The notes beneath the pieces were generated by a model. It had not been told where the DNA came from and did no database searches. It saw only the letters and a list, made by a program, of their open reading frames with translations. Made by a program: the position numbers and the translations under genes. Below are positions 29,419 to 54,176 of a DNA stretch of 64,000 bases, in pieces. The stretch spans positions 13,659 to 77,658 of the forward strand of contig JAJZZB010000003.1 of NCBI GenBank assembly GCA_021797795.1, in the 5' to 3' direction. Every line of letters starts with the position of its first letter. The first letter of the stretch is position 1. Source of the DNA: Actinomycetes bacterium (GTDB lineage Bacteria; Actinomycetota; Acidimicrobiia; Acidimicrobiales; Bog-793).

Positions 29419-29548
29419 GACGAGGGGCGGATAGACGGCGGCTCCCCGGCATCCGAGTTGCGCCGGTGCCGCGGGAGGCGAGGATCGAGCGCCGCTCACG
29501 AGGGCGGGGCGGCCCCGGAGGCGAGATGCCCGGCACAGCGACGAGAAG

Positions 29549-30671: not shown

Positions 30672-32963
30672 TCAGGAGCCGGCGAGAGCCGCGTCGAGGC
30701 TCTCGGCGAGCTCGTCGCCGTCGCCCTCGGAGAACACGAGCGGTGGCCTGATCTTGACGACGTTGCCGGCCGGGCCAGTCGTACCGACGAGCACGCCGAG
30801 GCGGCGGAGCCGGTTGGCGACGCCCTTGGCCGAGGCGGCGTCGGCCCGGCCGTCCGTGCCGAGGATGTCGAGACCGAACAGCAGCCCCCAGCTGCGGAGC
30901 CCGCCGGCGGCGTCGTGGCGGGAGACGACTTCGTCGAGCAGCGCCCGCAGGTGCGCCCCCGACGAGGCGGCGTTCTCGACGAGACCCTCCCGCTCGACCA
31001 CGCCCAGCACGGCGAGGGCGGCCGCACAGGCGAGCGTGTTGCCGCCGAAGGTGCTGAAGTAGCCCGTGGCGTCGATGAAGGGGTCGACGAGCTCGGCGCG
31101 CCCGAGGAGGGCGGCCACCGGGAAGCCGTTGCCCATGGGCTTGCCGAGGGTCATGAAGTCCGGCTCGATCCCGGACGGCCCGATGCTCCACAGCCCTTCG
31201 CCGGTCCGCCCGTAGCCGGCCTGCACCTCGTCGGCGACGAAGAGCCCGCCGGCCGCCCTGACCGCCTCGGCCGCCTCGAGCAGCCAGTCGGTCGCCGGGC
31301 CCCGGACCCCGTCGCTCGTGAAGGCCGAGTCGACGAAGAGGGCCGCCGGGGCATGCCCGGCCTCCGACAGCGCCGAGACGACACGACGGTGCCGACCGTC
31401 GTCCGTCTTGCCCGAGGGCGGGGAGAGCAGGCCGATGTGGTCGGGGGCGAAGCCCGCCGGCCACTCCTCGGGCGAGAGAGCCGTCGTCGCCTCGGTCACG
31501 CCGTGGTAGGCGTGCGAGGTGACGAGGGCGCCGCTGTGACCGGTGGCGAAACGGGCGATCCGCCAGACGATGTCGTTCGCCTCGCTCCCTGAGTTCACGA
31601 ACAGGACGCGGTCGAGCCCCGCCGGAGCCCGCTCGACGAGCCGCTCGGCGAGTTCGACGCTCGCCTCGGTCAGATACCGGGTGTTCGTGACGAGCCGGCG
31701 CGCCTGGGTGGCGATGGCGGCCGCCACCGCCGGGTGGCAGTGGCCGACGACCGGGACGTTGTTGTAGGCGTCGAGGTAGCGCCGCCCCTCGGCGTCGAAG
31801 AGGTGGACGCCTTCTCCCCGGACGAGGTGGACCGGCTCGTCGTAGGTGAGCCCGAGCGACCCGAGGACGCGGCGGCGGGCGGCGAGCAGTCCCGCCGTCT
31901 CCCGGACCTCGTAGCCCTGCCGGGGTGCCGGGCCGGCCGCGGGGCGGGCGGCGGTGGCGAGGCGGGCACCGACCCGGTCGAGGCCCTCGCCCGCCAGGAG
32001 CCGGAGGAAGTCGACCGCCCCGCCTGGGAAGGCGGGGGCGTCGGCGTGCCGGCTGCGGCGCCAGGTGCTCACGACGACGGCCGTGGCACACCGGGCGGCG
32101 ACGAGGTCACCGAGGAGGACGGCCTCGTCCTCCTCGAGGGGCGTCACCTCGCAGTAGCCGGCGATCATCGGCTCGGCCAGCTCGAGCGAGCCGGGCCGGC
32201 CGTCGAGGACGTCGGCGAGAGCCACGGCGAGGTCGCAGACGAGGGCCGTGTGGGTCATGTCGCCGAAGTCGGTGATGCCGACGACCCGCCCGGCGTCGTC
32301 GACGAGGACGTTCTCCCGGCTGAGGTCGTTGTGCACCACCTGGGCGCGGAGCCGCTCGAGCACCGGCTGGACGCGCTCGTCGAACCGGTCGATCACCTCG
32401 GTGACGAGCGCCCGGCGCTCCTCGTCGAGAAGGGGTAGGCGGTCCCGCAGGGCCGGCGTGTGCCGGACGTCCCACTGGATCGGGTAGCCGGCCGCCGGGT
32501 GGAAGTAGCCGCGCAGCGCCCGCCCGAGCCGCGCCGCGTCGCGGCCCAAGCCGGCGAGGGCGGCGGTGCCGAGCTCGTCGCGCTCCGCGTGCCGGCCGTC
32601 GAGGAAGGTGAACAGCTGGACGAGCGACTCCCTGCCGTCCGGTCCGGTGACGGCCGCGATCGTCTCGCCGCCCCGGGTGGGGAGCACCTCGGGGATCGGG
32701 AGGCTCGGGTCGACCCGGCGGATGTGGGCGAGGGCGCCCGTGCGCATCTCGACGACGTCGCGCAGGTCGGCCGGGTTGTGGATCTTGATGAGGACGCGGC
32801 GGGCGGCGCCGTCGACGCGGAAGTTGACGTCGCGCTCGCCGTGCAGCTCGTGGAGCTCCCCGACGAGGCCGTACCGCTCCTCGAGGACCCGGGCGGCGAG
32901 CTCGCGGTCGAAGGCCGGACGTGGTTCCTCGAGAGGATCGGTCATGGGCACATCCTCGCTCAT
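30672..32963 (-). CDS. Fusion: aminoglycoside/choline-kinase-like phosphotransferase + class III PLP enzyme (hydroxylysine kinase / phospho-lyase, AGXT2L-type)
   Basis: LHGERDVNFR, QVVHNDLSRENVL, ITDFGD; then YLDAYNNVPVVGHCHP, FVNSGSEAND, ADEVQAGYGR, TLGKPMGNG (PLP Lys), KIRPPL. Confidence 0.88.
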   Translation of the reverse strand: MSEDVPMTDPLEEPRPAFDRELAARVLEERYGLVGELHELHGERDVNFRVDGAARRVLIKIHNPADLRDVVEMRTGALAHIRRVDPSLPIPEVLPTRGGETIAAVTGPDGRESLVQLFTFLDGRHAERDELGTAALAGLGRDAARLGRALRGYFHPAAGYPIQWDVRHTPALRDRLPLLDEERRALVTEVIDRFDERVQPVLERLRAQVVHNDLSRENVLVDDAGRVVGITDFGDMTHTALVCDLAVALADVLDGRPGSLELAEPMIAGYCEVTPLEEDEAVLLGDLVAARCATAVVVSTWRRSRHADAPAFPGGAVDFLRLLAGEGLDRVGARLATAARPAAGPAPRQGYEVRETAGLLAARRRVLGSLGLTYDEPVHLVRGEGVHLFDAEGRRYLDAYNNVPVVGHCHPAVAAAIATQARRLVTNTRYLTEASVELAERLVERAPAGLDRVLFVNSGSEANDIVWRIARFATGHSGALVTSHAYHGVTEATTALSPEEWPAGFAPDHIGLLSPPSGKTDDGRHRRVVSALSEAGHAPAALFVDSAFTSDGVRGPATDWLLEAAEAVRAAGGLFVADEVQAGYGRTGEGLWSIGPSGIEPDFMTLGKPMGNGFPVAALLGRAELVDPFIDATGYFSTFGGNTLACAAALAVLGVVEREGLVENAASSGAHLRALLDEVVSRHDAAGGLRSWGLLFGLDILGTDGRADAASAKGVANRLRRLGVLVGTTGPAGNVVKIRPPLVFSEGDGDELAESLDAALAGS

Positions 32964-32993
32964 GGCGACTCGGCCTCCGAGCGCCGAGGCGCC

Positions 32994-34676
32994 TCAGCCG
33001 GCCTGGCGGTCGTAGACGACCGAGCCGTCGACGAGGGTGAGGTCGACGCCGACGAGTCCGATCTCGGAGGAGGGGACCGAGAAGACGTCCCGGTCGAGGA
33101 CGACGAGGTCGGCCCGCTTGCCGACGGTGATCGAGCCGGTCGTCTCCTCGAGATGGTTGAAGTAGGCCGAGCCGAGCGTGAAGGCCTCGATCGCCGTGGC
33201 GAGGTCCATCCGCTCGTCGGGCAGGAAGGGCGTCTCGGCCGCGTCGCCGCCACCGTAGGCATAGTCGGGCGGGACGGTCCGGTTGACCGCGACGTGAATC
33301 TCCGAGAGGGCGTTCGGCGTCGAGACCGGCCAGTCACTGCCGAAGCAGAGCCGGGCGCCGGCCCGCTTCAGGCTGGCGAAGGGGTACTGGGTGCTCGCCC
33401 GCTCGGGGCCGAGGAAGGGGAGGGTCAGCTCGGTCATCTGCGGCTCGTAACAGGCCCACAGCGGCTGGCCGTTGGCCAGCAGGCCGAGGGCGGCGAAGCG
33501 GGGGAGGTCCTCTGGGTGGACGACCTGGATGTGGGCGGCGCAGTGTCGGTGGTCGGAGGTTCCGTTCGCCCTCCTCGCCGTCTCGACGGCGTCGAGGACC
33601 TCCCGCACGGCGCGGTCGCCGATGGCGTGGAAGTGGGCCTGGAAGCCCTCTCTGTCCACCCTCGTGACGTACTGCTTGAGCTCCTCCGGGTTGAAGAAGC
33701 TCGTGCCGTGGTTGTGGGTGGCGTGCCCCTCCCGGTCGAGATAGGGCGTCAGCATGGCGGCCGTGAAGTTCTCGCAGACGCCGTCCTGCATGAACTTGAC
33801 CGAGCTCGCGCGAAAGCGCCCACCCGGGGCGGCCGCCTTCTCCCGGCGGGCGAGCAGGTGGTCGATCTGGCCCTCGCCGCCGTCGCGGGACCACCAGAGC
33901 GCCCCGACGACGCGTGCGGTGAGGCGGCCGTCGGCATCGAGGGCGAGGAAGGCGTCGAAGCAGTCCGGGACGACCGGGTAGTCGCCGACGATGGCCTCCT
34001 GCCAGGCGGTGATGCCGAGGCTGTGGAGGTAGCGCTGGCCCTCGAGGATGCCGTTCGCCAGCGCCTCGACGGTCGGCGCCGGGACGACTCGCTGGACGAG
34101 CGCCATGGCGCCCTCCTGCAGGGTCCCGACCGGCTCGCCGCCGGCGTCCCGCTCGATCCTGCCGTCGGCGGGGTCGGGTGTGCCGGCACGGATCCCGGCG
34201 CGCTCGAGGGCGACCGAGTTCGCCCAGGCGGCGTGGTGGTCGCGATTGGAGAGGAAGACCGGGCGGTCGGGGACGACCGAGTCGAGCTCCTCCTTGAGCG
34301 GCACTCCCCCCGGGAAGACGTCCATCGCCCAGCCGCCACCGGTGATCCACTCGACCTCAGGGTGGGCGGCGGCGGAGGCGGCGAGGATGGCGAGATACTC
34401 CTCCCTGCTGTGGGCCTCGGAGAGGTCGCACCGGCTGCGCTCGAGGCCGCCGCCCGAAGCGTGCACGTGCGCGTCCTGGAAGCCGGGCAGGAGGCTGCGA
34501 CCGGCGAGGTCGACGACCTCGGTGCGGGCGCCGGCGAGCTCTCGAACCTCATCATCGCTGCCGACAGCGACGATGACGCCGTCGCGCACCGCCACGGCCC
34601 CTGCGGTCGGCAGGTCGGCGTCCACGGTGTGAACGGCCCCGTTCTTGAAGATGAGGTCCGCCTCGGAGGTGGTCAT
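32994..34676 (-). CDS. Amidohydrolase family 3 (YtcJ/NfdA-like)
   Basis: PGFQDAHVH, FHAIGDRA, AHIQ, FGSDWPV, GSITVGKRADLVVLD. Confidence 0.9.
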   Translation of the reverse strand: MTTSEADLIFKNGAVHTVDADLPTAGAVAVRDGVIVAVGSDDEVRELAGARTEVVDLAGRSLLPGFQDAHVHASGGGLERSRCDLSEAHSREEYLAILAASAAAHPEVEWITGGGWAMDVFPGGVPLKEELDSVVPDRPVFLSNRDHHAAWANSVALERAGIRAGTPDPADGRIERDAGGEPVGTLQEGAMALVQRVVPAPTVEALANGILEGQRYLHSLGITAWQEAIVGDYPVVPDCFDAFLALDADGRLTARVVGALWWSRDGGEGQIDHLLARREKAAAPGGRFRASSVKFMQDGVCENFTAAMLTPYLDREGHATHNHGTSFFNPEELKQYVTRVDREGFQAHFHAIGDRAVREVLDAVETARRANGTSDHRHCAAHIQVVHPEDLPRFAALGLLANGQPLWACYEPQMTELTLPFLGPERASTQYPFASLKRAGARLCFGSDWPVSTPNALSEIHVAVNRTVPPDYAYGGGDAAETPFLPDERMDLATAIEAFTLGSAYFNHLEETTGSITVGKRADLVVLDRDVFSVPSSEIGLVGVDLTLVDGSVVYDRQAG

Positions 34677-36403
34677 CTCGCTGCTCGCTCCCCTCTCGGT
34701 CGCTGCCGGCGCCTGTGCGCCGGTCCGTCGTCGTTGCTCCTCGGTGGCGCCTCGAGGCGCCCGTCCGCCCGGTCGGCCTCCTCGGCGACGACCGGTCGGC
34801 GCGTCGGCGCACCGTAGCCGCCTCCCCCGCTGGTCTCGATGCGGACGACCGACCCCGGCTCGAGGGTCATGGTGACCTTGGAGGGGACGGGGACCTCGAC
34901 GCCGTCGGGCCCGAAGAGCCGGAGACGGGAGGGCGCGCCGTCACCGCCACCGGCCGCTCCGCGCGGGGGGAAGCGGGGGTCAGTCTGCTCGGAGTACATC
35001 GTCACCGTCGCCGGACGCTCGAGCACCTGGTAGTCCCGGCGCAGACCGAGGCCGCCGTGGTGCTCGCCGGTGCCCGCCGAGCCGGGGATCAGCTCGGTGC
35101 GCAGGATGCGCACCGAGTAGTCGCTCTCGGCCACCTCGACCGGCATGAGGCCGACGTTTGCCATGTAGGTGTCGACGCCGTCCAGCCCGTCGCCGCCGGC
35201 ATGGGCGCCCGTCCCGCCGCCAACGACCTCCGCCATGACGCTCGAGAGGCCGCTGCGGGGCGAGACGCTCTCGAGGTTCATGCCGAAGAAGGCGACCGTG
35301 CTGCTCGCCACGGCCTTGTGCGGCCACAGCTCGGAGGCCGCCCGCACGAGGGTGTCGGCGAGCCGCTGGCAGGTGTTGTGGCGGACCGAGACGGCCGCCG
35401 GCGGCTCGGGGTTCAACAGGACCCCGCGGGGGCAGACGATCTCGAGCGGGCGGAGGATCCCGTCGTTGGTCGCCATCGAGGGGTCGGTCATCGCCCGCAG
35501 GGCGTAGACGACGGCCGCCCGGGTGCTCGCCCAGGGGACGTTGAGCGCCCCGCTCAGCTGCGGGGCGGTGCCCGACAGGTCCACCAGCAGCTCGTCGCCC
35601 GTCTTCACGAGGCGGGCGTGGATCCGCTGGGGCGGGCCGCCGGTGCCGTCGTCGTCGAGGAAGCCCTCCGCCTCGGACTCGCCGTCGGGGAGGGCGGCGA
35701 GCGCCGCGCGGACGGCCCGCTCGACCGAGTCGAGCATCTCGTCGAAGGCGGCCAGCAGCCTGGGCGTCCCGTAGCGGGCGGCCAGCTCCTCGATGCGCGA
35801 CACGCCGATCAGGCAGGCCGCCCGCTGGGCGCGCAGGTCCGACAGCGTGGAGCGCGGGTCGCGCACGGCCGCCGCCACGATGGAGACGACGTCGGGGTTC
35901 TCCCGGCCGGCGCGGTAGAGGCGCACCGGCGGGAGCACGAGGCCCTCGGCGTAGACCTCCCTCAGGTCCGGTCCCTCGGTGCCCGGCCGCACCCCTCCGA
36001 CGTCGATGTGGTGCGCCGTCGTGCCGGTCCAGGCGACCAGGTGGCCGCCCAAGAAGACGGGCATGATCACGTTCAGGTCGGGGGTGTGCATGGCCCCCAT
36101 GTAGGGATGGTTGGCGAGATAGGCGTCCCCCGGCTCGACGGCGTCACCCCAGCGTTCGATCAGGTTCTTCACGACGAGCGACATCGCCCCGAGCTGGGCG
36201 GGGATGAAGTCGGCCTGGGCGACGAGGTCGCCGTCGGAGCGGAACACGGCGCAGCTGAAGTCGTCCATCTCGCGGATGATCGGGCTGTAGCTCGAGTGCT
36301 TCAGCACGCCGCCCATCTCGACGGCAGCCGAGTGCAGGGCGGCCGAGATCAGCTCGAAGGTGACCGCCGGCAGCCGAGTGCCGGCGCCGGTCCGCCGGCT
36401 CAC
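34673..36403 (-). CDS. Hydantoinase B / oxoprolinase subunit
   Basis: SSYSPIIREMDDFSCA, NHPYMGAMHTPD, HHIDVGG, GGGGYG; GTGA overlaps. Confidence 0.92.
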   Translation of the reverse strand: MSRRTGAGTRLPAVTFELISAALHSAAVEMGGVLKHSSYSPIIREMDDFSCAVFRSDGDLVAQADFIPAQLGAMSLVVKNLIERWGDAVEPGDAYLANHPYMGAMHTPDLNVIMPVFLGGHLVAWTGTTAHHIDVGGVRPGTEGPDLREVYAEGLVLPPVRLYRAGRENPDVVSIVAAAVRDPRSTLSDLRAQRAACLIGVSRIEELAARYGTPRLLAAFDEMLDSVERAVRAALAALPDGESEAEGFLDDDGTGGPPQRIHARLVKTGDELLVDLSGTAPQLSGALNVPWASTRAAVVYALRAMTDPSMATNDGILRPLEIVCPRGVLLNPEPPAAVSVRHNTCQRLADTLVRAASELWPHKAVASSTVAFFGMNLESVSPRSGLSSVMAEVVGGGTGAHAGGDGLDGVDTYMANVGLMPVEVAESDYSVRILRTELIPGSAGTGEHHGGLGLRRDYQVLERPATVTMYSEQTDPRFPPRGAAGGGDGAPSRLRLFGPDGVEVPVPSKVTMTLEPGSVVRIETSGGGGYGAPTRRPVVAEEADRADGRLEAPPRSNDDGPAHRRRQRPRGERAAR

Positions 36404-38454
36404 CGGACCTCCTCGATCCACAGGCTCCCCCGCCGGTCGACGCGGGCGGACTGGCCGTCGAGAACGAGGGTGGTGGCGTCGTGCTGGTGGACGATGGCCG
36501 GGCCGTCGAAGCGGTGGCCGGACCGCAGCGCCGCCCGGTCGTAGACCGGGATGCCGACCCGGTGGGCGCCGCCCGGGAGCCGGGCGGAGGTCGTCGTCAC
36601 CATCGCCGAGGACGCCGTGCTGCGACCGGCGGGAGAGACGCCCTCCTGGCGCGCCTTCGGCAGGGCGCCGAAGGCGGACAGCCGCAAGGTGACGACCTCG
36701 ACCGTTCCCTCCGGGTCACGGTGGCCGTAGGTCCGCTGGTGGAGCTCAGCGAAGCGCTCGGGCAGCTCGGCGAGCGCCGCCTCGCTGAGTGGTGAGATCT
36801 GCACGGCGAGCTCGTAGCCCTGCCCAACGTAGCGGCAGTCGGCCGAGGCGACGAGGCGGGCCGGGCGCCCCGAGACGCCGTCGTCGGCAAGCCGGGCCCG
36901 TATCTCCTCGGCCGTCGAGCGCAGCCACCCAGCGAGCGCCGGCAGCATCTCCTCGGTGAGCGGGGCGAGCACCGTGCGGGACTCGTCGACGCGCAGGTCG
37001 GTCGAGACGAGGCCGGCCGCGGCGAACAGCCCCGGGTAGCGCGGGACGAGCACGGAGCCGAACCGGAGCTCTCGCAGCAGCAGGCCGGCATGCAGCGGGC
37101 CGGCGCCGCCGAAGGCGACGAGGGTGTAGCCCTCGGGGTCGATCCCGCGCTCGACTGAGACCCGCCGGAGGGCGAGGCTCATCTGGGCGACCGACACCTG
37201 GACGATGCCGTCGGCCGCCTCCTCAAGGCTGAGCCCCATCTCCTCACCGACCCGGCCGACGACCTTGCGGGCCGCCTCGAGGTCGAGCCCGAGCCCGCCG
37301 GCGAGGGAGAGGCCGGTCGGAAGCGTGCCGAGGACGACGTGGGCGTCGGTGACGGTCGCCTCCTCGCCTCCCCGCCCGTAGGCGGCCGGACCGGGCTGGG
37401 CGCCGGCGCTGCGGGGCCCGACGCTGAGCCGGCCGGTCGGGCCGACCTCGGCGATGCTGCCGCCGCCGGCGCCGATCGTCACCATGTCGACCGAGGGGCA
37501 CAGGATCGGGTGGCCGGCGATGGTCTCGGTGGGCGTGAGCGGTGGCGTCCCGTGCGCCACCAGGCAGACGTCGAGCGACGTCCCGCCCATGTCGAAGGAG
37601 ACAAGGCGCTCGATGCCGTACTCCTGCCCGAGGGCGACCGTGCCGGCGACGCCAGCCGCCGGCCCGGAGAGGAGCAGGCGGTGCGCCTCCTCGTCGGCCC
37701 GGGCGGCGGGGACGCAGCCGCCGTTCGACTGCATGATCATTAGGCGGCCCGAGACCCCGAGGCGCTCGAGACGGGAGGTGGCCGAGACGAGGTAGCGCCC
37801 GACGACCGGGCGGAGCCCGGCGTTCACCGCCGCCGTGGCCGTCCGCGGGTACTCCCTGAACTCGCGGGCGAGGCGGGCCGAGCGGGCGACGGGCACGCCC
37901 CCGAGACGACGCTCGAGTGCCTCGGCCATCTGCTCCTCGTGGCGGTCGTCGAGGTAGCTGAACAGGAAGGCGACCGCGACGGCCTCGGGCCTGCGGGCGG
38001 CCACCTCGTCGACGACCCGGGCGATCTCCGCCTCGCTCAGCGCGGTGACGATCTCTCCCGTGCTCGACAACCGCTCGCGCGCCTCGACGCGGTCGCGGCG
38101 GGCGACGAGTTCGCCCGGACGGGGCTGCTGGAGGTCGTAGACCGACGGGCGGGTCCCGTTGCGGTAGCTGAGGACGTCCCCGAAGCCCTCGGTCGTGACG
38201 AGAACCACGCGGGCGAGCCGGCCGGTCAGCATGGCGTTCGTGGCGACGGTGGTGCCGTGGAAGACGAGGTGGGCGGAGCCGAGCGGGAGCCCCGCCCGCT
38301 CGAGCTCGGCCAGGGCCTCCTCGAAGGCGATGGCCGGGTCCTCGGGCGTGGAGGGCACCTTGGCCACGAGCGTCCCTCCCGCCGCGCTGACGGCGACGGC
38401 GTCGGTGAAGGTGCCGCCGACGTCGACGGCGACGAGGAAGCGCCCCGGTCTCAC
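36400..38454 (-). CDS. Hydantoinase A / oxoprolinase subunit (ATP-dependent lactamase)
   Basis: VDVGGTFTD, HGTTVATNA, REYPRTATA, LSGPAAGV, FDMGGTSLDV, AFGGAGPLHA. Confidence 0.92.
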   Translation of the reverse strand: MRPGRFLVAVDVGGTFTDAVAVSAAGGTLVAKVPSTPEDPAIAFEEALAELERAGLPLGSAHLVFHGTTVATNAMLTGRLARVVLVTTEGFGDVLSYRNGTRPSVYDLQQPRPGELVARRDRVEARERLSSTGEIVTALSEAEIARVVDEVAARRPEAVAVAFLFSYLDDRHEEQMAEALERRLGGVPVARSARLAREFREYPRTATAAVNAGLRPVVGRYLVSATSRLERLGVSGRLMIMQSNGGCVPAARADEEAHRLLLSGPAAGVAGTVALGQEYGIERLVSFDMGGTSLDVCLVAHGTPPLTPTETIAGHPILCPSVDMVTIGAGGGSIAEVGPTGRLSVGPRSAGAQPGPAAYGRGGEEATVTDAHVVLGTLPTGLSLAGGLGLDLEAARKVVGRVGEEMGLSLEEAADGIVQVSVAQMSLALRRVSVERGIDPEGYTLVAFGGAGPLHAGLLLRELRFGSVLVPRYPGLFAAAGLVSTDLRVDESRTVLAPLTEEMLPALAGWLRSTAEEIRARLADDGVSGRPARLVASADCRYVGQGYELAVQISPLSEAALAELPERFAELHQRTYGHRDPEGTVEVVTLRLSAFGALPKARQEGVSPAGRSTASSAMVTTTSARLPGGAHRVGIPVYDRAALRSGHRFDGPAIVHQHDATTLVLDGQSARVDRRGSLWIEEVR

Positions 38455-40642: not shown

Positions 40643-40652
40643 GTGCTCCCTC

Positions 40653-41429
40653 CTAGATGGCGGTGGCACCGCCGTCGACCGGGAGGGCGGCGCCGGTGAC
40701 GTAGGCGGCATCGGGGGAGGCGAGGAAGGCGATCACCGCCGCCACCTCGTCGGCCGAGCCGAGGCGGCCGAGGGGGACCGAGCTCTCGAGGTAGGCGGCC
40801 GCCGCCACCGGGTCGTCGGTGAGCCGCAGCATGGGGGTGTCGATAACGCCCGGGCAGACGGCGTTGACCCGGATGCCGTGCGGAGCCCACTCGACGGCCA
40901 TCTGCCGGCTGAGGGCGAGCACCCCGCCCTTGCTCGCGTGGTAGTGGCCGGAGGGCTCGCCGGCGTCGCCGACGAGCGCCGCGCTCGAGGCGAGGTTGAC
41001 GACGGCGCCCGGGTGCCGCGCCGCCACGAGGGAGCGCCCGACGGCTCGGGAGACGAGGAAGGTGCCGGTGAGGTTGGTCTCGAGCACCTCGTGCCACTCC
41101 GCCGCCGACAGCTCAGTGAGGGCCTGGATCCGGTAGACGCCAGCGGCGTTGACGAGCACGTCGATCGGCCCGCCGAGCACGCGGGCGGCCTCCGCCACGG
41201 CCCGGTCCACGGCCTCCTCGTCGGCCACGTCGGCGATGACGAGGCTCATCCCGTCGACCTCCCCGCCGGGAGCCTCCCGGCGGTCGAGGGCCACGACCGC
41301 CCCGCCCTCTGCGGCGAGCCGGCGCGCCGTGGCGAGCCCGATGCCCGATGCCCCGCCCGTGACGAGGCAGCGCCGGCCGGCCATCCTGGCGGGCAGGGGG
41401 ACGGGCGCCTCAGTTGTGGAAGACGCCAC
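40653..41429 (-). CDS. Short-chain dehydrogenase/reductase
   Basis: TGGASGIG, VNAAG, YHASKGG, VNAVCPG, VDGG; start may be ATG near 41384. Confidence 0.9.
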   Translation of the reverse strand: MASSTTEAPVPLPARMAGRRCLVTGGASGIGLATARRLAAEGGAVVALDRREAPGGEVDGMSLVIADVADEEAVDRAVAEAARVLGGPIDVLVNAAGVYRIQALTELSAAEWHEVLETNLTGTFLVSRAVGRSLVAARHPGAVVNLASSAALVGDAGEPSGHYHASKGGVLALSRQMAVEWAPHGIRVNAVCPGVIDTPMLRLTDDPVAAAAYLESSVPLGRLGSADEVAAVIAFLASPDAAYVTGAALPVDGGATAI

Positions 41430-42180
41430 CGTTCACCCCGATCGTCTGGCCGGTCACATACGAGGCGTCGGCGGAGGCGAGCCAGCTCACCACCCCGGCG
41501 ATGTCGGCTCCCGTGCCGTGGCGTCCGAGCGGGATCTCGGCCCGCACCGCCTGAAACTGCTCCTCAAAGGAGGTCCCGGCCCGCTCGGCACGCGCCCGCA
41601 GCTCGTCCCAGTGCATCTCGGTCGCCATGTGCCCCGGGGCGATGGCGTTCACCCGGATCCCCTCTGGGGCGAGCTCGCGGGCCATTGACTGGGTGAGCAG
41701 GGCGACGCCGGCCTTCGAGGCCGAGTAGGCGGCGCCGCCGGGCACCCCCTGCTGGCCAAAGAGGGAGCCCATGTTGACGATGCTGCCGCCGGTGCCCTGG
41801 GCGAGCATTGCGGAGACGACGAGGCGCGAGACGAGGAAGGTCCCGACGAGGTTGATGTCGAGGACGTGGCGGAAGGACTCGGGCTCGGTCGAGACGACGG
41901 GCGTGCTCGGGCCGCCGATGCCGGCGTTGTTCACGAGCAGGTCGACCCCGCCGAGGACGGCGAGCGCCCCGGAGACGGCCGAGGCGCACTCCTCGACGAG
42001 CGCGACGTCGGCCACCACCGGGGCGATCGTCGCGGCCGGGGACTTGGCCGAGAGGCGCTTGGCCGTGACCTCGACGGCAGAATCGACGTCGACGAGGACG
42101 ACGTCGCCGCCATCCTCCACGATGCGGGCGGCGATTGCCTCCCCAAGGCCGCGCGCCGCGCCGGTGACGATGGCCCTCAC
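41410..42180 (-). CDS. Short-chain dehydrogenase/reductase
   Basis: TGAARGLG, NNAGI, YSASKA, VNAIAPG, TGQTIGVNGG; GTGA overlap. Confidence 0.9.
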   Translation of the reverse strand: MRAIVTGAARGLGEAIAARIVEDGGDVVLVDVDSAVEVTAKRLSAKSPAATIAPVVADVALVEECASAVSGALAVLGGVDLLVNNAGIGGPSTPVVSTEPESFRHVLDINLVGTFLVSRLVVSAMLAQGTGGSIVNMGSLFGQQGVPGGAAYSASKAGVALLTQSMARELAPEGIRVNAIAPGHMATEMHWDELRARAERAGTSFEEQFQAVRAEIPLGRHGTGADIAGVVSWLASADASYVTGQTIGVNGGVFHN

Positions 42181-42956
42181 AACGACGACGCGATCTCGGC
42201 CGCCGTCGCGACCCAGACGTCCTCGTGGCTCTTCACGTAGCCGAGGAAGGCGTCGAGCAGCGCCAGCCGGCTCGGCCTCCCGATGATCTGCGGGTGCATC
42301 GTGAGCACGAAGGCTCCTCCCATCTGCCGGATGCCGAGGAACTCCTCCTGCCAGATGGAGCGCACGTCGGCGGTGGTCGAGATCGTGTTGGTCCAGCCGG
42401 CGCCGTCGAACCAGAAGTGGGCGGCGTCGTCGAGGATCCACTGGATCGGCAGCTCCACGACGCTCGTGCCCGGGTGGCGGTAGGGGCGGATGTCGTCCAT
42501 CAGGTTGGAGCAGTAGCTGAGGCCGTACTTCTCGACCAGGCCGAGCGTCACCGGGGTGAGCTCCCAGGAGGGAGAGCGGTAGCCGGTCACCTTCGGGGAG
42601 AAGCCGCGAAGCACCTCGAGGCCGCGGCGCATCTCCTCCTCCTCCTCCTCGGGGCTGAGGGAGGTGACCGAGGTGTGGGTGTAGCCGTGATGGGCGAGCT
42701 CGTGGCCGGCGGCGACGATCTGCTCGACGCGGCCGGGGTGGCGCTCGGCCACCCGGCCGGGGACGAAGAAGGTCGCCCGCACCTGGTGGCGCTCGAGCAA
42801 CTCGAGGATCGCCGGCACAGCCACCCTGGCGCCGTAGCCCCCCTGGGAGAGCACGCCCGGGCGGGAGCCATTGGCCGGGTCCTCGCCGATCCAGACCTCC
42901 TCGGCGTCGAAGTCGAAGGTGAAGCAGGCTGCGGCGGCGGCGTCACGGGGCCACAT
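42177..42956 (-). CDS. Polysaccharide-deacetylase (CE4) fold protein, PuuE-like small-molecule amidohydrolase
   Basis: FTFDFD, GHELAHHGYTH, GYRSPSW, TMHPQIIGRPSR. Confidence 0.85.
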   Translation of the reverse strand: MWPRDAAAAACFTFDFDAEEVWIGEDPANGSRPGVLSQGGYGARVAVPAILELLERHQVRATFFVPGRVAERHPGRVEQIVAAGHELAHHGYTHTSVTSLSPEEEEEEMRRGLEVLRGFSPKVTGYRSPSWELTPVTLGLVEKYGLSYCSNLMDDIRPYRHPGTSVVELPIQWILDDAAHFWFDGAGWTNTISTTADVRSIWQEEFLGIRQMGGAFVLTMHPQIIGRPSRLALLDAFLGYVKSHEDVWVATAAEIASSL

Positions 42957-44055
42957 CGGTCGGCGCTCCTGTCGTGTCGTGGATGGCGATGGGGTCGAGC
43001 GCCCCGGCGGTCCCTCCGGCCGGCGCGACGCCCTCGGTCGCCTCCGGCTCCTCGGCCTCCTCCTCGCCTTCCTCCGCCCAGGCGGACAGGCGGGCCCGCA
43101 CCTTGCCGACGAGGCCGACGATCCCGCCGGGGACGAAGACGACGATGACGAGCAGGAAGATGCCGACGACGGTCAGCTGGACACCGGGATGGTTGACGAG
43201 CACCGTCTCGACGACGGTGACGATGGTCGTCCCGATCGCCGGTCCGAAGATGGTGCCGAGGCCGCCGATGACGAGCATGGTGACGTCGAGGCTCATCGGG
43301 GTGAGACCCATGATCGACGGGTCGATCGACTGCTCGAAGCACAGGTAGAGCGCCCCCGCGATGCCAGCGAGGAAGCCCGAGAGGCCGAAAGCGAGGATCC
43401 GGTAGCGAAGCGGGCTCACGCCCCGGGCGGCCGCGAACGCCGGCGCGTCCCGGATCGCCCTGAGGGCGATGCCGAGCCTCGACCGCGTGACGAGTGCGAT
43501 GGCGACGGTCGAGGCGACGATCACCCCGAGCAGCGTCCAGTAGTAGGCGTGCATGGAGGCGACCGGCGACAGGAACGAGTAGAGACCCTTCACGCTCGGG
43601 AAGCCGTAGGAGCCGCCCGTCAGCCCGCTGCCGTCGTTCAGGATCAGGTACTGGACGATCTCGGCGAAGGCGAAGGTGAGCAGCGAGGTGTAGATCCCGA
43701 ACAGCCGCAGCGTCGGGACCGCCATCAGCACCGAGACCGCCGCCCCGATGAGCCCGCCCACGACGACGTCGAGGACGGGCGGGAGGCCCGTGTGCAGCAT
43801 GAGGATGCCGGCGCCGTAGCCGCCGAGGGCGTAGACGGCCAGTTGGCCGAAGTTCCACACGCCGGCGACGCCGAGGATGAAGTTCCAGCTCATGTTCATC
43901 ACGAGCAGGATCATCGTGGTGACGAAGACCGAGAGGATGTACTGGTTGGACTCGACGAGGGGGAAGGCCGCCAGCGCCAGGACGACGAGGACCGCCAGGC
44001 TCCACCGCCCGCTCGTCATGTCGGGGAACAGCGCCCGGCTGTGCCCCTCGTTCAC
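42943..44055 (-). CDS. livM: Branched-chain-type ABC permease (LivM)
   Basis: MSWNFILGVAGVWNFGQ, TFAFAEI, LTGGSYG, GLGTIFGP. Confidence 0.9.
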   Translation of the reverse strand: MNEGHSRALFPDMTSGRWSLAVLVVLALAAFPLVESNQYILSVFVTTMILLVMNMSWNFILGVAGVWNFGQLAVYALGGYGAGILMLHTGLPPVLDVVVGGLIGAAVSVLMAVPTLRLFGIYTSLLTFAFAEIVQYLILNDGSGLTGGSYGFPSVKGLYSFLSPVASMHAYYWTLLGVIVASTVAIALVTRSRLGIALRAIRDAPAFAAARGVSPLRYRILAFGLSGFLAGIAGALYLCFEQSIDPSIMGLTPMSLDVTMLVIGGLGTIFGPAIGTTIVTVVETVLVNHPGVQLTVVGIFLLVIVVFVPGGIVGLVGKVRARLSAWAEEGEEEAEEPEATEGVAPAGGTAGALDPIAIHDTTGAPTDVAP

Positions 44056-44942
44056 AGCCGAGCCTCCGAGGGCTTCCCGAGCAGGCCCTGGGGCCGGAAG
44101 ATGAGGACGAAGAGGATCACCCCGTAGAGGATCGGGAGCGACCAGGTCGTCCCGAGGAACACCTCGGTCGTGGCCTGGATGAGCCCGATGACGTAGGCGG
44201 CGTAGACCGTGCCGGGCAGGCTGCCGAGCCCGCCGAAGACGACGACGATGAGCGCCTCGAGCAGCGGCAGATCGCCCGCCTGGGGGTAGGCGAAGAACTG
44301 GGCGCCGAGGAAGACGCCCGCCACGCCCGCCAGCGAGGAGGCGAGCCCCATGGTGACGGGGTAGAGCTTGGAGACCGGGACGCCCATCAGGCGGGCGGCG
44401 TCCAGGTCCTGCGCGACTGCCCGGATGGCCATGCCCCACCGGGTCTTGCCGAGGAACAGCCCGAGGCCGCCCATCAGCAGGATCGAGATGGCCGCCATGG
44501 CGATCGACTGATAGGGCAGGTTCACCCCGTGGTAGACGTTCACGCCGCCGGAGACGACCGGCGTGACGTTGCGCTGCTGGGGGCCGAAGACCTCGAGGGC
44601 GACGTTCTCGAGGATCATCGCGACGGCGAAGGTCGTGATGAAGGTGACCATCTCGAAGTCGATGGCCTTGCGCCGACCCATGAGGGGCTGGACCGAGACG
44701 AGCTGGGTCATCATCCCGAGGACGAAGGTGGCGGCGAAGGCGAAGACGATGGCGAGGACGGGGTTCCAGTGGGCCGAGACGAGGATCCCCCAGCCGACGA
44801 AGCTACCGATCATCACCATCGATCCCTGGGACATGTCGAGGATGCGCAGGGTCCCGTAGATGAGCGTCATGCCGATCGCCACGAGCCCGTAGATGGACCC
44901 AAGGATGACGGTCGTGACGAGGATTCCGACGAGGTCGGTCAT
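44052..44942 (-). CDS. livH: Branched-chain-type ABC permease (LivH)
   Basis: LGSIYGLVAIGMTLIYG, WGMAIRAVAQD..ARLMGV, VFGGLGSLPG. Confidence 0.92.
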   Translation of the reverse strand: MTDLVGILVTTVILGSIYGLVAIGMTLIYGTLRILDMSQGSMVMIGSFVGWGILVSAHWNPVLAIVFAFAATFVLGMMTQLVSVQPLMGRRKAIDFEMVTFITTFAVAMILENVALEVFGPQQRNVTPVVSGGVNVYHGVNLPYQSIAMAAISILLMGGLGLFLGKTRWGMAIRAVAQDLDAARLMGVPVSKLYPVTMGLASSLAGVAGVFLGAQFFAYPQAGDLPLLEALIVVVFGGLGSLPGTVYAAYVIGLIQATTEVFLGTTWSLPILYGVILFVLIFRPQGLLGKPSEARL

Positions 44943-45664
44943 CAGGTGATGCTCCCGAGGTAGGCCGCGACAACGCCTTCGTCCTCGGAGAGCTCCTTGT
45001 AGGAGCCGCTCCGGGTGATCGAGCCCATCTCGAGGACGTGGATCGAGTCGGCGATGCCGCCGACGTGGGTGAAGTTCTCCTCGACGAGGAGGATCGTCGT
45101 CTTGGCGGACTTGAGCTCGGCGATGGCGCCGTAGACGGCGTCGAGCGCGACGGGGGCGAGGCCGAGCGAGGGCTCGTCGATCATGAGGATCGTGGACGGG
45201 CGCATGAGCGCCCGGCCGAGCGCGCTGAGGCGCCGCTCTCCCCCGGACAGGGTCCGCGCCTGCTGGTCGGCCCGGGCCTTCACGCCGGGGAAGAGGTCGT
45301 AGACGTGGGCGAGCGAGCGGCGCCGGTCCCTCCAGGACTGCCCGAGGAAGGCCCCCATGAGGAGGTTGTCCTCCACGGTCATCTCCGGGAAGAGGCCGTC
45401 GCCCTGGGGGACGAGCACCGCTCCGAGGCGGGCGATCTGCTCGGACGGGCGGCCGGCGATCTCCTCGCCATCGAGGAGGACCTCTCCGGCGCTCGGCCTG
45501 ATCAGGCCGTTGAGCGCCCGCAGGAGCGTCGTCTTGCCGTGACCGTTCGGGCCGATGATGACGGCCGACTCGCCTGCGCGCACCTCGAGGTCGAGCTCCC
45601 TCACGACCGTCGTGGCGCCGTATCCGGCCGACAGCCGGCGCACCGAGAGCAGCGGCTCGCTCAC
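44942..45664 (-). CDS. livF: ABC ATPase (LivF)
   Basis: GPNGHGKTT, LSGGE, MIDEPSLGLAP. Confidence 0.92.
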   Translation of the reverse strand: MSEPLLSVRRLSAGYGATTVVRELDLEVRAGESAVIIGPNGHGKTTLLRALNGLIRPSAGEVLLDGEEIAGRPSEQIARLGAVLVPQGDGLFPEMTVEDNLLMGAFLGQSWRDRRRSLAHVYDLFPGVKARADQQARTLSGGERRLSALGRALMRPSTILMIDEPSLGLAPVALDAVYGAIAELKSAKTTILLVEENFTHVGGIADSIHVLEMGSITRSGSYKELSEDEGVVAAYLGSIT

Positions 45665-46416
45665 TGCGCCGCCTCCCTGCGGTGCCGCGAGCCGAGGTAG
45701 ACCTCGATCACCCGCTCGTCGCGGAGCATTTCCTCCGGGCTCCCCTCGAAGAGGGCGGCGCCGTGGTGCATGACGAGGACCCGGTCCGCCAGCGAGGTGA
45801 GCGCCCGCATGACGTGCTCGATGCAGACGACGGCGAGGTCCGCGCCCCGCGACCGCCGGATGAGGTCCATCGTGAGCTCGATCTCGCCGAAGCTGAGGCC
45901 GCCGAAGGGCTCGTCGAGCAGGAGCGCCCGGGCGCCCGAGGCGAGCGCCGTCCCGAGCATCAGCCGCTTGGTGTCGAAGACGCCGAGCAGACCGGCGGTC
46001 TCCTCGGCACGGCTCTCGAGTCCGACGAAGGCCAGCATGTCGTAGGCGGCCTCGAGGGACGAGCGCTTGTCGCCCTCGGGGAGGCGGCGGCGGAAGGAAA
46101 CGGCGAGTAGCATGTTCTCGAGGACGGAGAGGGAGCGGGCGACCGTCGGCTGCTGGAAGGTGCGGGCGATGCCGCGCCGGGTCCGGTCGTGCACTGAGGC
46201 GTCGGTGACGACCGCGCCGTCGAGGACGACCTCCCCGCCCGAGGCCCGGGTGTGGCCGGAGATGACGTCGAACAGCGTCGTCTTGCCGGCGCCGTTCGGG
46301 CCGACGATGCCGAGGATCTCGCCGGGCGCCACCGAGAAGGAGATGTCGTTCACCGCTTTCAGGCCCCCGTAGCTCTTCGAGACCCCCCGGGCCTCGAGGA
46401 CGGGGCCGGCGCTCAC
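45661..46416 (-). CDS. livG: ABC ATPase (LivG)
   Basis: GPNGAGKTT, GIARTFQ, LLLDEP, CIEHVM. Confidence 0.92.
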   Translation of the reverse strand: MSAGPVLEARGVSKSYGGLKAVNDISFSVAPGEILGIVGPNGAGKTTLFDVISGHTRASGGEVVLDGAVVTDASVHDRTRRGIARTFQQPTVARSLSVLENMLLAVSFRRRLPEGDKRSSLEAAYDMLAFVGLESRAEETAGLLGVFDTKRLMLGTALASGARALLLDEPFGGLSFGEIELTMDLIRRSRGADLAVVCIEHVMRALTSLADRVLVMHHGAALFEGSPEEMLRDERVIEVYLGSRHRREAAQ

Positions 46417-47735
46417 TTCTTCAGCCAAGGCGGAAGCTGGAAGGATCCGGTCGTGTACGGGTCCGGTCCGATGAGGACCTGCTTGCCGTTCTGGATCTGG
46501 AAGGTGAGGTGCGGCATCCCGACCGAGGGGTCCTTGGTGTAATCCGGGTACGGGTAGCAGGTGAGGTAGTCGTCCGGCCAGCTGTAGGCCCCGCAGACGC
46601 CGCGGTAGATCGTGTTCTTCACTATTGCGTTCACCTTGTCGAAGGCGTAGGGGTCGCCCGCCTCGGCCACGGCGTCCGCCCAGATGCGGACGAGGTCGTA
46701 CTGGTCGCCGGCGTTGGAGAAGCCGGGCGAGGCGTTGAACTTCTGCTCGAAGGCGGTGTTGAACCGCTGGGAGATGTAGTCGCCCTCGACGACGCCGACG
46801 ACCGTCGACCAGATGACGCCGTCGGCCGCCGCGCCGGCGAGCTGGAGGTACTGTGGGATCGACGGCGCGTACTGCTGGTAGACGAGCGAAGGGGTCGGCG
46901 ACTGGCGGAACTGCTTGATGAACGACGCCTCGTCGCCGGCCGCGTAGTCGCTGAAGAAGACGATGCCCGGCGGCGTGTTGCGGATCTGGACGAGGGCGGC
47001 CGTCCAGTCGGCCTGGGGGACGGTGAACTCCTGGAACATCGTCGTGTGCCAGCCCTGCCTGGACATCGTCGCCTGGAAGGTCTTCGAGATGTTGAGGCTG
47101 TAGGGGTCGTTGCTCGTCACGATCGCCATCGTCTTGGACGACGGCGTCCAGGTGTTCTTCTTGATGAGGTTGTCGACGAGATAGGCGAAGCCCGGCCCGT
47201 ACCAGGTCTCGGAGGGGTCGCCCTGGAAGATGTTCGTGATGCCGTTGGACTTCACGAAGTCCACGTTCCCGTGCCAGGTGTTGACGTGGAAGGTCGGGAT
47301 CTTGGCCTGGGCGACGATCGGGAACTCGACCGAGCTGTAGGTGCAGAAGGGGGCGAAGACGGCCGCCACGTTCTGGGAGACGAACTTCTGAAAGACGTTC
47401 TTCATGACGTCGGGCTGCTGCTCCTCGGTGTTGAGCACCGACAGCTGCAGGGGCCGGCCGAGCACGCCGCCGGCCGCGTTGATCTCGGCCACCGCCAGCT
47501 GCTGGCCGCGGAGCATCATCTGGCCGTCGCCGGAGTAGGCGCCCGTGACTGGCACGCCGGAGCCGATGACGAGCGGCTGTCCCTTGCCACCCGAGGCGGT
47601 CGCGTCCGAGGCGGTGGTGGAGCTGCCGTGCCCGAAGTAGCCGGCGAGGCCTCCGACGACGAGGCCGCCGGCTCCGGCTGCTCCGACGCCCTGCAGGAAC
47701 TCGCGCCGGCTGAGCGACTTGCGGTTGTTCGGCAT
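46413..47735 (-). CDS. Tat-exported ABC substrate-binding protein (type I periplasmic fold)
   Basis: Twin-arginine signal SLSRREFLQG; LVIGSGVPVTG, EINAAGGVLGRP, YAPSIP. Confidence 0.9.
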   Translation of the reverse strand: MPNNRKSLSRREFLQGVGAAGAGGLVVGGLAGYFGHGSSTTASDATASGGKGQPLVIGSGVPVTGAYSGDGQMMLRGQQLAVAEINAAGGVLGRPLQLSVLNTEEQQPDVMKNVFQKFVSQNVAAVFAPFCTYSSVEFPIVAQAKIPTFHVNTWHGNVDFVKSNGITNIFQGDPSETWYGPGFAYLVDNLIKKNTWTPSSKTMAIVTSNDPYSLNISKTFQATMSRQGWHTTMFQEFTVPQADWTAALVQIRNTPPGIVFFSDYAAGDEASFIKQFRQSPTPSLVYQQYAPSIPQYLQLAGAAADGVIWSTVVGVVEGDYISQRFNTAFEQKFNASPGFSNAGDQYDLVRIWADAVAEAGDPYAFDKVNAIVKNTIYRGVCGAYSWPDDYLTCYPYPDYTKDPSVGMPHLTFQIQNGKQVLIGPDPYTTGSFQLPPWLKK

Positions 47736-47926
47736 CCTCGGCCTCCTCAGGTCTGATCTTCGGTCGGGGGATCGCGAAGTCCGCACACGATCGCAGATGT
47801 CCGGGAGGGCGTCATCGGTCGATTGACGTATTTTCACTTCTTGCGATGGTCAATGATCGAGTAGGGTGCGGACGGCCAGGGGAGAGTCGTTCCGACCCTC
47901 GAAGGGGTGTGGTGCGCCAGACCAGC

Positions 47927-51720: not shown

Positions 51721-51770
51721 CACCGGCTCCTCGTCCTCAAGGTGCCCACCTGTCGGCGGCCCAGCGCCGC

Positions 51771-54112: not shown

Positions 54113-54134
54113 GATCCTCCCCGACCCCATGCCG

Positions 54135-54147
54135 TGACGTTTTGGCA
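54135..54147. promoter_or_regulatory. Candidate LacI-family operator (TGACGTTTTGGCA) between ureAB and the LacI gene
   Basis: CG-centred with an A/T tract, resembling LacI/GalR half-sites; only one half is convincing. Confidence 0.35.
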
Positions 54148-54176
54148 GCGGCCCCGCCGACGGTAACATTGCCGCC

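Follow-up and report, generated by a model that had tools for sequence, protein, structure and literature searches.

We analysed a 64,000-nucleotide stretch of contig JAJZZB010000003.1 (positions 13,659 to 77,658) of the Actinomycetes bacterium assembly GCA_021797795.1, referred to below as the window, and in it a compact run of 14 genes coding for a binding-protein-dependent importer and a series of hydrolases and oxidoreductases. All coordinates are window positions, and identifiers such as L001 designate loci fetched for comparison. Genes were called by combining an open reading frame listing with G+C content by codon position and scans with Pfam and NCBIfam profiles; the Pfam assignments of the operon genes were each above cut-off. 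An initial annotation of this DNA had placed 14 genes on one strand between 30672 and 47735. All 14 were found, on the minus strand and with each named family present, from the ATG of the binding protein at 47735 to the stop codon of the last gene at 30672, and they are numbered here G01 to G14 in that order.

The genes had also been described as almost all overlapping, and indeed neighbours are joined by overlaps of 1 to 20 nt or by gaps of at most 30 nt. With the chosen starts, the junctions from G01 to G08 are overlaps of 4, 4, 1, 4, 14, 4 and 20 nt, and those from G08 to G14 consist of a 10-nt gap, four overlaps of 4 nt each, and a 30-nt gap. The 4-nt overlap, of ATGA or GTGA type, is the commonest across the 13 junctions; the G07/G08 overlap becomes a 25-nt gap if G08 starts at ATG 41384 instead of GTG 41429. 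At none of the junctions is there space for a promoter or terminator between the genes. Such packing is the pattern expected of a translationally coupled operon, and from it we infer that the 14 genes are co-transcribed. A consensus scan for sigma-70 promoters and terminators between 29.5 and 49.4 kb, uninformative at 73% G+C, returned no promoter and one terminator-like site, against 2.5 expected. Downstream of the point where G14 converges with a neighbouring aldo-keto reductase (AKR) gene there is a 13-nt hairpin. No riboswitch that would name a ligand was found at gathering score when the whole window was scanned with Rfam, and no inverted repeats were seen in the 110-nt divergent promoter region upstream of G01.

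The first five genes make up a complete ATP-binding cassette (ABC) importer of the HAAT, or LivJHMGF, type, with one Peripla_BP_6 protein, two BPD_transp_2 permeases and two ATPases, one of which carries the LivG C-terminal motif. G01 (46413..47735; Peripla_BP_6, 108 bits) is a substrate-binding protein of LivJ-AmiC type. It is preceded by the ribosome-binding site GAGGAGG, and its N-terminus, MPNNRKSLSRREFLQG, has the twin-arginine (Tat) signal SRREFLQG. The ATPases are G02, of LivG type (45661..46416; ABC_tran and BCA_ABC_TP_C; GTGA overlap with G01), and G03, of LivF type (44942..45664; ABC_tran, 102 bits; 4-nt overlap). The permeases, each with BPD_transp_2 at 132 bits, are G04, of LivH type (44052..44942), and G05, of LivM type (42943..44055; start GTG 44055 with GGAGG). 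Over the transporter genes (42000-48000) the G+C content dips to 0.67-0.70; the window as a whole is at about 72-75%, and its remainder at 0.72-0.75.

Divergent from G01 lies a regulator gene, R (47846..49687, plus strand), whose product joins an N-terminal LuxR/GerE helix-turn-helix (HTH; GerE, 52 bits) to a signal-less sensor with the fold of a binding protein (Peripla_BP_6, 100 bits). Sensor and mature G01 are paralogues, with 31% identity over 388 aa (E 4e-63), and the same structure, 3H5L, is the top PDB match of both (212 bits for G01). Their paralogy makes it probable that the compound taken up also serves as inducer. A literature search gave no match for the ligand of 3H5L. Orthologues of R, 36-69% identical, adjoin the enzyme core described below, or HyuAB or HyuA, in more than 15 loci, and the same architecture recurs in that range of identity beside HyuAB in many Actinomycetota.

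AmiC senses small amides and controls the aliphatic amidase operon of Pseudomonas aeruginosa through the antiterminator AmiR. The present regulator resembles AmiC/AmiR in that a cytoplasmic sensor of binding-protein fold for a small nitrogen compound controls an amide-catabolic operon. It differs in having a LuxR/GerE DNA-binding domain in the same polypeptide as the sensor, where AmiC has a separate antiterminator as partner, and in that the sensor is a 31%-identical paralogue of the operon's own transport protein. No ANTAR protein was present among the genes examined (27.4-56.2 kb). MSMEG_1082, a GlnR-regulated LuxR gene of Mycobacterium smegmatis, was discarded as a match, as it heads a peptide-ABC/amidase operon and not this cluster.

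The importer is followed by seven enzyme genes, G06 to G12. No enzyme of the operon attains the equivalog cut-off of any characterised enzyme in NCBIfam, and for this reason no name transfer was accepted. G06 (42177..42956; Polysacc_deac_1) is a metallo-hydrolase of CE4/NodB fold, which the initial annotation had called PuuE-like. Its best PDB match is 3RXZ from M. smegmatis (199 bits), ahead of 3QBU, the HP0310 protein of H. pylori (124 bits), and of PuuE (82 bits). The Asp-His-His metal triad (D15/D17, H90 and H94) is intact and invariant across 12 orthologues, and likewise R127, P129, D176/D177 and H221, so that G06 shows, besides the triad, the Arg, Asp and His motif residues conserved in canonical metal-dependent CE4/NodB enzymes. 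Relatives of CE4 fold include PuuE allantoinase and imidases (PMC11424739), and in PuuE the triad gives way to Glu-His-Trp (PMC11424739, citing Ramazzina 2008); in our HMMER alignment, 'HHGYTH' of G06 stands opposite 'SHGYRW' of PuuE. We therefore dropped the PuuE allantoinase or imidase assignment, as the triad is kept and TIGR03212 scores 82 bits against a cut-off of 425. Enzymes of the 3RXZ/3QBU type have been classed as 'NodB1.2', a functionally orphan subclass (PMC10967932). G06 is closest to these two structures and shares their active-site residues, metal triad included, which makes it a predicted metal-type NodB enzyme of this subclass. Neither PMC10967932 nor PMC11424739 mentions NodB1.2 genes coupled to genes for C45 enzymes, short-chain dehydrogenases/reductases (SDRs) or HyuAB, and no documentation of the MSMEG_4459 neighbourhood was found in the literature. 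In Mycolicibacterium sp. P9-64 (L175:4507-10786), a compact variant holds PucR, an amino-acid permease, two SDRs, an arginase-family ureohydrolase and CE4; the orphan M. smegmatis structure 3RXZ may come from such a setting.

G07 (41410..42180) and G08 (40653..41429) are two classical SDRs, each with adh_short_C2 at 200 bits; G07 attains no NCBIfam equivalog cut-off, and alignments of G08 orthologues start at residue 13-19. G09 (39500..40642; AAT/C45) scores 274 bits against the cut-off of 85 for NF040521, and its Cys119, the nucleophile at the processing site, is invariant in 11 orthologues from four phyla. It is thus predicted to be an autoproteolytic proenzyme of the C45 N-terminal nucleophile (Ntn) hydrolases/acyltransferases. 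To our knowledge, no bacterial member of C45 has been characterised. The family includes the isopenicillin-N acyltransferase (IAT) of Penicillium and insect Tan, an N-beta-alanyl-amine hydrolase (PMC10194958). G09 shares with these archetypes the proenzyme family and the conserved Cys nucleophile, and would cut or transfer an acyl-amide; it differs from them in its distance, the sole solved relative being P. chrysogenum IAT (2X1C) at 91 bits, and in its setting, a catabolic operon in which it is paired with CE4. G10 (38451..39503; Bac_luciferase, 196 bits) is a luciferase-like (LLM) oxidoreductase dependent on flavin or F420. It remains below the F420-LLM model TIGR03619 (139 bits against a cut-off of 167) and the FMN-type TIGR04027 (130 against 413), and its solved relatives are uncharacterised or distant.

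G11 (36400..38454; Hydant_A_N 148, Hydantoinase_A 268 and Hydant_A_C 26 bits) and G12 (34673..36403; Hydantoinase_B 547 bits, model positions 3-519 of 519) are the two subunits, HyuA and HyuB, of a predicted ATP-dependent lactamase/hydantoinase. Both have the full-length domains of the hydantoinase/oxoprolinase/lactamase superfamily, and G12 is the single HyuB copy of the genome. The best PDB matches of G12 are 7HK5, an 'N-methylhydantoinase' of 1288 aa (295 bits), and the caprolactamase 6YRA (220 bits). Identity with the caprolactamase CapA/CapB was rejected, as NF050156 and NF050157 score 449 and 237 bits against a cut-off of 1000 each. Acetone or acetophenone carboxylase was rejected as well, with 127 and 58 bits against 295 and 220 and no gene for a gamma or small subunit in the operon. 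Among described systems, CapAB of Pseudomonas jessenii (PMC8453981, PMC6061476), the hyuAB N-methylhydantoinases and the opine-lactam HyuAB of Ti plasmids (PMC6733357) resemble the present one in their two-subunit HyuA/HyuB and in being catabolic operons with an ABC importer and further nitrogen-releasing enzymes. They differ in that here there is no racemase, canonical carbamoylase or omega-transaminase, and in that the company HyuAB keeps here (CE4, C45, two SDRs and LLM) is found in none of them.

The conservation of this gene set was examined in loci fetched around relatives of C45, HyuB and CE4 (alignment A1), in which all window proteins were placed by tblastn; G06 to G12 were counted at 40% identity or more, with loci of the same contig merged. 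The initial annotation had raised the possibility that homologous operons are random subsets without a conserved core. This was not what we observed. All seven enzymes were present on 25 distinct contigs and at least six of them on 32, and 27 of these 32 also carried the ABC genes. Gene order matched that of the window exactly in most carrying contigs, and independent gene calls with Pfam marks on metagenome contigs gave the same gene string. In other taxa the set is kept but its genes are redistributed over two or three units of divergent orientation, as seen in Mycolicibacterium sp. CBMA 247 (L068), M. agri CCUG 37673 (L131), Leucobacter luti RF6 (L074), Leucobacter sp. 7(1) (L013/L075), Arthrobacter hankyongi (L132), an Actinomycetota metagenome-assembled genome (MAG; L090/L124) and Chloroflexia MAGs (L084, L087, L091). 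Common to all rearranged versions are R, the ABC importer, CE4, two SDRs, C45, HyuA and HyuB. A more distant, alphaproteobacterial version combines ABC genes, C45, CE4, HyuAB, an M20 peptidase and an Old Yellow Enzyme (OYE) homologue (L145, L150, L163). The core thus consists of seven enzyme genes, for five enzymatic functions, that have stayed together in different orders and in two phyla.

Recurring throughout, by family, are alcohol oxidation, at least two amide hydrolyses (CE4 and C45) and an ATP-driven ring opening (HyuAB), to which a YtcJ-type hydrolysis is often added. This chemistry probably narrows the substrate down to derivatives of amino acids or polyamines that are hydroxylated lactams, hydantoins or ureides, and the operon is, as far as its gene families tell, one for scavenging nitrogen (and carbon). 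The importer, the sensor copied from its binding protein and the solely degradative enzyme types point together to substrate-induced catabolism of one small, polar, amino-acid-like compound. We consider the best explanation, at a probability of about 0.55, to be one dedicated, substrate-induced pathway that mineralises a small nitrogen compound of hydroxylated lactam, hydantoin or ureide type. The general logic of the initial annotation, uptake followed by stepwise catabolism of a nitrogen compound, holds up in this respect, as it fits a binding-protein importer with a divergent regulator whose sensor is 31% identical; the amino-alcohol part of its substrate fares less well (see G14 below), and the specific compounds it named may still apply. 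Variant clusters indicate the same catabolic direction. In these, the importer is swapped for APC amino-acid permeases or an SBP_bac_3 protein, the SDRs are replaced in Acidobacteria by pyrroloquinoline quinone (PQQ) alcohol dehydrogenases, and nitrogen-releasing extras appear, namely M20, arginase-family, DAO, histone deacetylase (HDAC)-like and urease-like proteins, gamma-glutamyltranspeptidase and amidases.

In such a pathway, the ABC importer would take up the substrate, and the SDR pair, with LLM, would oxidise or epimerise one or two secondary alcohols. CE4 and C45, which form a minimal pair standing alone elsewhere, would remove an N-acyl group and cut a linear amide. HyuAB would then use ATP to open a stable five- to seven-membered lactam or hydantoin ring, and the YtcJ-like enzyme (G13) would hydrolyse the amide or N-carbamoyl product. 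In this lineage only, the kinase/phospho-lyase fusion G14 would turn the released vicinal amino alcohol into an aldehyde or ketone, ammonia and phosphate, and the carbonyl product would be handled by the adjacent AKR. Finally, the probable targets of an accessory-free urease homologue and an OYE flavoprotein encoded nearby would be a urea or ureido fragment and an enone or secondary amine, stemming from this compound or from a sister one.

Several points weigh against a single dedicated pathway. As no equivalog cut-off is attained, each chemical step is derived from family membership and not from orthology, and the order of the steps is a guess. Gene spacing is the sole basis for co-transcription. 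LLM, present in most of the uncultured Actinomycetota and Chloroflexia versions, is missing from those of Mycolicibacterium, Leucobacter and Arthrobacter and from L035, nor are G14, YtcJ, the urease-like unit and the AKR found in every version. C45 orthologues about 60% identical occur also in unrelated contexts, and sub-modules are found alone. This is the case for CE4+C45 (L042, L118, L120, L123, L147, L185 and, in Acidobacteria, L019-L023), for SDR-SDR-CE4 (L148, L157, L162, L171, L172, L175, L182, L188), for R+HyuAB (L077, and beside a further gene set in L080 and L088) and for YtcJ+G14, with CE4 as the hub of module pairings across loci. This means that parts of the system may serve several substrates.

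Carried further, the same observations would make of the locus an amidase toolbox, that is, co-regulated hydrolases of broad specificity for amides, lactams and ureides which, with redox helpers, free ammonia from many nitrogen compounds when nitrogen is needed. Modules do recombine, as seen with CE4+C45 in L042, SDR-SDR-CE4 with an arginase-family enzyme in L175, R+HyuAB in L077 and YtcJ+G14 in L189, and the accessory genes vary by lineage. In L040, C45, two YtcJ, two amidases, a beta-lactamase-fold enzyme, urease-like genes and two SDRs surround a peptide-type transporter. Against such a toolbox stand the single dedicated importer and the single ligand-sensing regulator whose sensor copies the binding protein, as well as the gene order and translational coupling kept in at least 25 species-level genomes. 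Moreover, the same eight functions survive rearrangement in distant taxa, and functions kept after rearrangement argue for interdependence. We regard the toolbox as rather improbable, and rank the dedicated pathway above it.

A narrower form of the dedicated pathway would have as its substrate a hydantoin, a cyclic ureide or a cyclic imide, such as N-methylhydantoin from creatinine, 5-hydroxyhydantoin, parabanate, or allantoin-like or dihydropyrimidine-like rings. HyuAB would be an ATP-dependent hydantoinase, YtcJ, M20 or the urease-like enzyme the hydrolase of a carbamoyl or urea group, and CE4 a ring-opening, imidase-like enzyme acting after oxidation of a ring hydroxyl by the SDRs. HyuAB together with an M20 peptidase is the classical hyu arrangement, and the alphaproteobacterial versions pair the two. 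The top solved relative of HyuB is named N-methylhydantoinase (295 bits), urease-like genes recur beside the system in four lineages, and in L080 and L088 R+HyuAB has as a neighbour a DAO-type oxidase, a member of the sarcosine-oxidase family. PuuE allantoinase and the imidases are, moreover, relatives of CE4 fold (PMC11424739), but G06 keeps the metal triad and is of neither type. As the window contains no hydantoin racemase or canonical carbamoylase, and no known hydantoin route makes use of C45 or LLM, we find this form of the pathway unlikely; the hints in its favour are all at family level.

The last two genes of the operon bear on another narrow form. G13 (32994..34676) is a YtcJ-like amidohydrolase (PF07969, COG1574; Amidohydro_3 333 bits, positions 1-472 of 472), and its PDB relatives are all uncharacterised. 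Among 53 loci with room for it, 14 have YtcJ directly after HyuB, at 60-70% identity; operons 74% and 60% identical at C45 (L035 and L037) stop after HyuB. In L037 (7262-7693) the transporter is also shrunk to a 143-aa permease remnant and there is no regulator, CE4 to HyuB being intact. G14 (30672..32963, 763 aa) fuses a kinase of APH fold (APH, 83 bits) to a phospho-lyase of class-III aminotransferase (AT) fold (Aminotran_3, 227 bits). Its C-terminal domain is nearer to phospho-lyases, 5G4I at 290 bits and human ETNPPL (6TOR) at 255 bits, than to the best transaminase at 172 bits. With its APH kinase in the same polypeptide, G14 thus has the make-up of the kinase plus ammonio-phospho-lyase systems of HYKK/PHYKPL and ETNPPL type, and the lyase activity is putative. 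The top PDB match of the kinase domain is 6EF6 (33 bits), which we take to be the aminopropanol kinase of M. smegmatis. Of the five C-N hydrolase folds counted in the initial annotation, there remain four, together with one pyridoxal phosphate lyase.

The usual bacterial APH-AT fusions have about 1015 aa, and G14 falls below their cut-offs (612 against 1128 bits for NF004799, 483 against 973 for NF004800). In this comparison its AT domain aligns to model positions 577-1009 and its APH domain forms a second stretch; relative to the usual fusion, represented by proteins of 1014-1020 aa in L080 and L088, some 250 central residues are missing. The tblastn matches in L080, L088 and L096 were not retained as orthologues of G14, as they cover the AT domain only, at 30-36% identity, and those of L080 and L088 are of the 1015-aa type. 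Fusions of about 760 aa do exist in soil Actinomycetota, in more than 100 clusters and at 53-74% identity, where they stand alone (L190), overlapped by an SDR (L191) or paired with YtcJ (L189). G14 itself was found in none of the 32 other core clusters, and in none of the 9 loci in which YtcJ is followed by at least 4.5 kb of further DNA. It is a lineage-specific add-on to the operon. The 14 genes are not one invariant unit, and the amino-alcohol substrate initially put forward, which depends on G14 alone, is not borne out by the other clusters.

In the L189 pair, YtcJ is 80% identical to G13 and the fusion 74% identical to G14. A DDE transposase gene lies about 1.7 kb upstream of this pair (L189:345-7379), with a Haem_oxygenase_2 gene in between, a hint that YtcJ and the APH-AT fusion move as a unit. 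Compared with the known kinase/phospho-lyase routes for amino alcohols (human HYKK/PHYKPL and ETNPPL, Arthrobacter 5G4I), G14 is alike in joining an APH kinase with a phospho-lyase-like domain, and differs in having been added to a lactamase operon, with a YtcJ amidohydrolase as its partner. A likeness to the aminoacetone route is seen in L191, where the homologue of G14 is coupled to the SDR.

These genes enter into the second narrow form of the dedicated pathway, close to the guess of the initial annotation, in which lactams and N-acyl derivatives from polyamines or lysine would be degraded. Examples are N-acetylated or hydroxylated products of putrescine, cadaverine or spermidine, lactams of 2-pyrrolidone or 2-piperidone type, and 6-oxopipecolate. 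CE4 would be a deacetylase and C45 the enzyme cleaving an omega-aminoacyl amide; carbinolamine or hydroxyl groups would be oxidised by the SDRs, the lactam opened by HyuAB and a vicinal amino alcohol removed by G14. The human relatives of G14 reportedly act on 5-hydroxylysine and ethanolamine phosphate. Variants of the cluster add an HDAC-like enzyme (acetylpolyamine amidohydrolase family), APC permeases, a DAO-type amine oxidase and gamma-glutamyltranspeptidase, and others an arginase/agmatinase-family enzyme or a PotD-like binding protein. Relatives of HyuAB open unsubstituted lactams, as caprolactamase does (PMC8453981), or are proposed to open opine lactams (PMC6733357), and the C45 archetypes IAT and Tan cut aminoadipoyl and beta-alanyl amides (PMC10194958). 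Every one of these links is nevertheless at family level, the conserved core has no polyamine-specific enzyme and G14 is outside it, while the recurrent urease-like genes and M20 'carbamoylase' partners point to ureido or hydantoin chemistry. A polyamine or lysine origin of the substrate seems to us as unlikely as a hydantoin.

Beyond the 14 genes, the span given initially proved too narrow, as R (47846-49687), a urease-like/OYE/LacI group (49735-55211) and the AKR (29435-30370) belong to the same island. The AKR gene (29435..30370, plus strand; Aldo_ket_red, 104 bits), convergent with G14, is a probable accessory. Homologues lie upstream of the operon in L002/L184 (69% identity) and beside C45-CE4 in a Chloroflexi MAG and an Acidimicrobiia MAG (L007 and L015, 45-46%). 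On the other side, three minus-strand genes (54112-49735), also probable accessories, converge with R. They code for a fused urease-like gamma-beta protein (53429..54112; Urease_gamma and Urease_beta), a urease-like alpha protein (51771..53432; Urease_alpha and Amidohydro_1) and an OYE flavoprotein (49735..51678; Oxidored_FMN, 201 bits, and Pyr_redox_2, 62 bits). A LacI-family regulator gene (54138..55211, plus strand; LacI and Peripla_BP_3) is divergent from this unit.

OYE homologues of 30-33% identity follow C45 in Leucobacter and HyuAB/M20 in the alphaproteobacterial clusters. Orthologues of urease-like alpha, 69-73% identical, stand beside two related gene sets. The first, in L080, comprises R, HyuAB, DAO, a 1014-aa APH-AT fusion, a homocysteine-methyltransferase-like gene and LacI. 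The second, in L003/L004/L040, comprises two YtcJ, a beta-lactamase-fold enzyme, a peptide ABC system, C45, two amidases and two SDRs. A further urease-like orthologue (47%) comes after the core and YtcJ in L052. LacI orthologues are directly divergent from the syntenic operon in L002/L184 (51%) and lie beside the urease-like genes in L080 (49%). No UreD was found in the genome to which the window belongs (3.8 Mb, 94% complete), and the urease-like protein may hydrolyse a compound different from free urea.

The core of one lineage borders on genes of another kind. In L053 (13449-16391) and L193 (13119-16558), YtcJ is followed by genes for a dehydroquinate (DHQ) synthase-like enzyme, a cupin, an SDR and a cupin together with ABC2 exporter genes; in L193, C45 is also joined straight to YtcJ, as if LLM-HyuAB had been deleted. 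Being confined to this lineage, the module was set aside as a clue to function. It is, with the occurrence of C45 enzymes in biosynthetic clusters such as those of penicillin (IAT) and azaserine, what could suggest a role in biosynthesis, self-resistance or tailoring of a secondary metabolite instead of catabolism. Such a role is very improbable, given that the transporter is an importer with a binding protein, that all the hydrolases are of degradative types and that the regulator senses through a paralogue of the binding protein. Besides, the conserved core has no scaffold-forming enzyme, be it a nonribosomal peptide synthetase (NRPS), a polyketide synthase (PKS), an ATP-grasp enzyme or a cyclase.

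All the families met here are known and the general design of the operon is common, and we found the gene set itself to be undescribed in the literature searched: no paper gave this set, and none combined hydantoinase, polysaccharide deacetylase, C45 and LLM. Mentions in the R. pomeroyi literature turned out to be unrelated. Soil organic nitrogen is largely in amide, lactam and heterocyclic forms, for which the microbial degradation routes are poorly mapped. In this setting, the cluster is a well-defined orphan pathway, in fixed order in dozens of uncultured soil Actinomycetota, and the complete rearranged copies of the culturable Mycolicibacterium, Leucobacter and Arthrobacter make it directly testable. 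Two of its central families, bacterial C45 and CE4 of 3RXZ type, have no assigned physiological role. The identity of the substrate would annotate several large families of 'putative deacetylase', 'peptidase' and 'hydantoinase' together, and would explain a new regulator design, a LuxR HTH joined to a copy of the transporter's binding protein. We also entertain, more tentatively than the dedicated pathway itself, the possibility that the core with YtcJ, the urease homologue, OYE and the LuxR-binding-protein sensor forms a complete, undescribed route for an abundant hydroxylated N-heterocycle or lactam of soil organic nitrogen. If so, it would give first physiological roles to bacterial C45, to the NodB1.2 subclass of CE4 and to urease homologues without UreDEFG. 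The cluster is also a possible source of ATP-driven lactamases and amidases for biocatalysis, and even as a loose toolbox the operon would be a useful metagenome marker of organic-nitrogen scavenging.

As for its distribution, HyuB orthologues of at least 55% identity were rare in two genome samples: an even sampling of the phylum gave 1 in 200, and a set of relatives from the same genus, family and order 1 in 40, whereas the targeted search brought up dozens of carriers. The low frequency in sampled genomes marks the cluster as a patchy accessory trait, and the operon was probably acquired horizontally. One copy was found on a contig labelled Candidatus Micrarchaeia archaeon (L119, DATLUG010000033.1), with CE4 62%, the SDRs 60% and 67%, LLM 54%, HyuA 57% and HyuB 67% identical to those of the window. 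This cluster is of actinobacterial type, and its presence in a DPANN bin most likely reflects faulty binning and not a copy carried by an archaeon.

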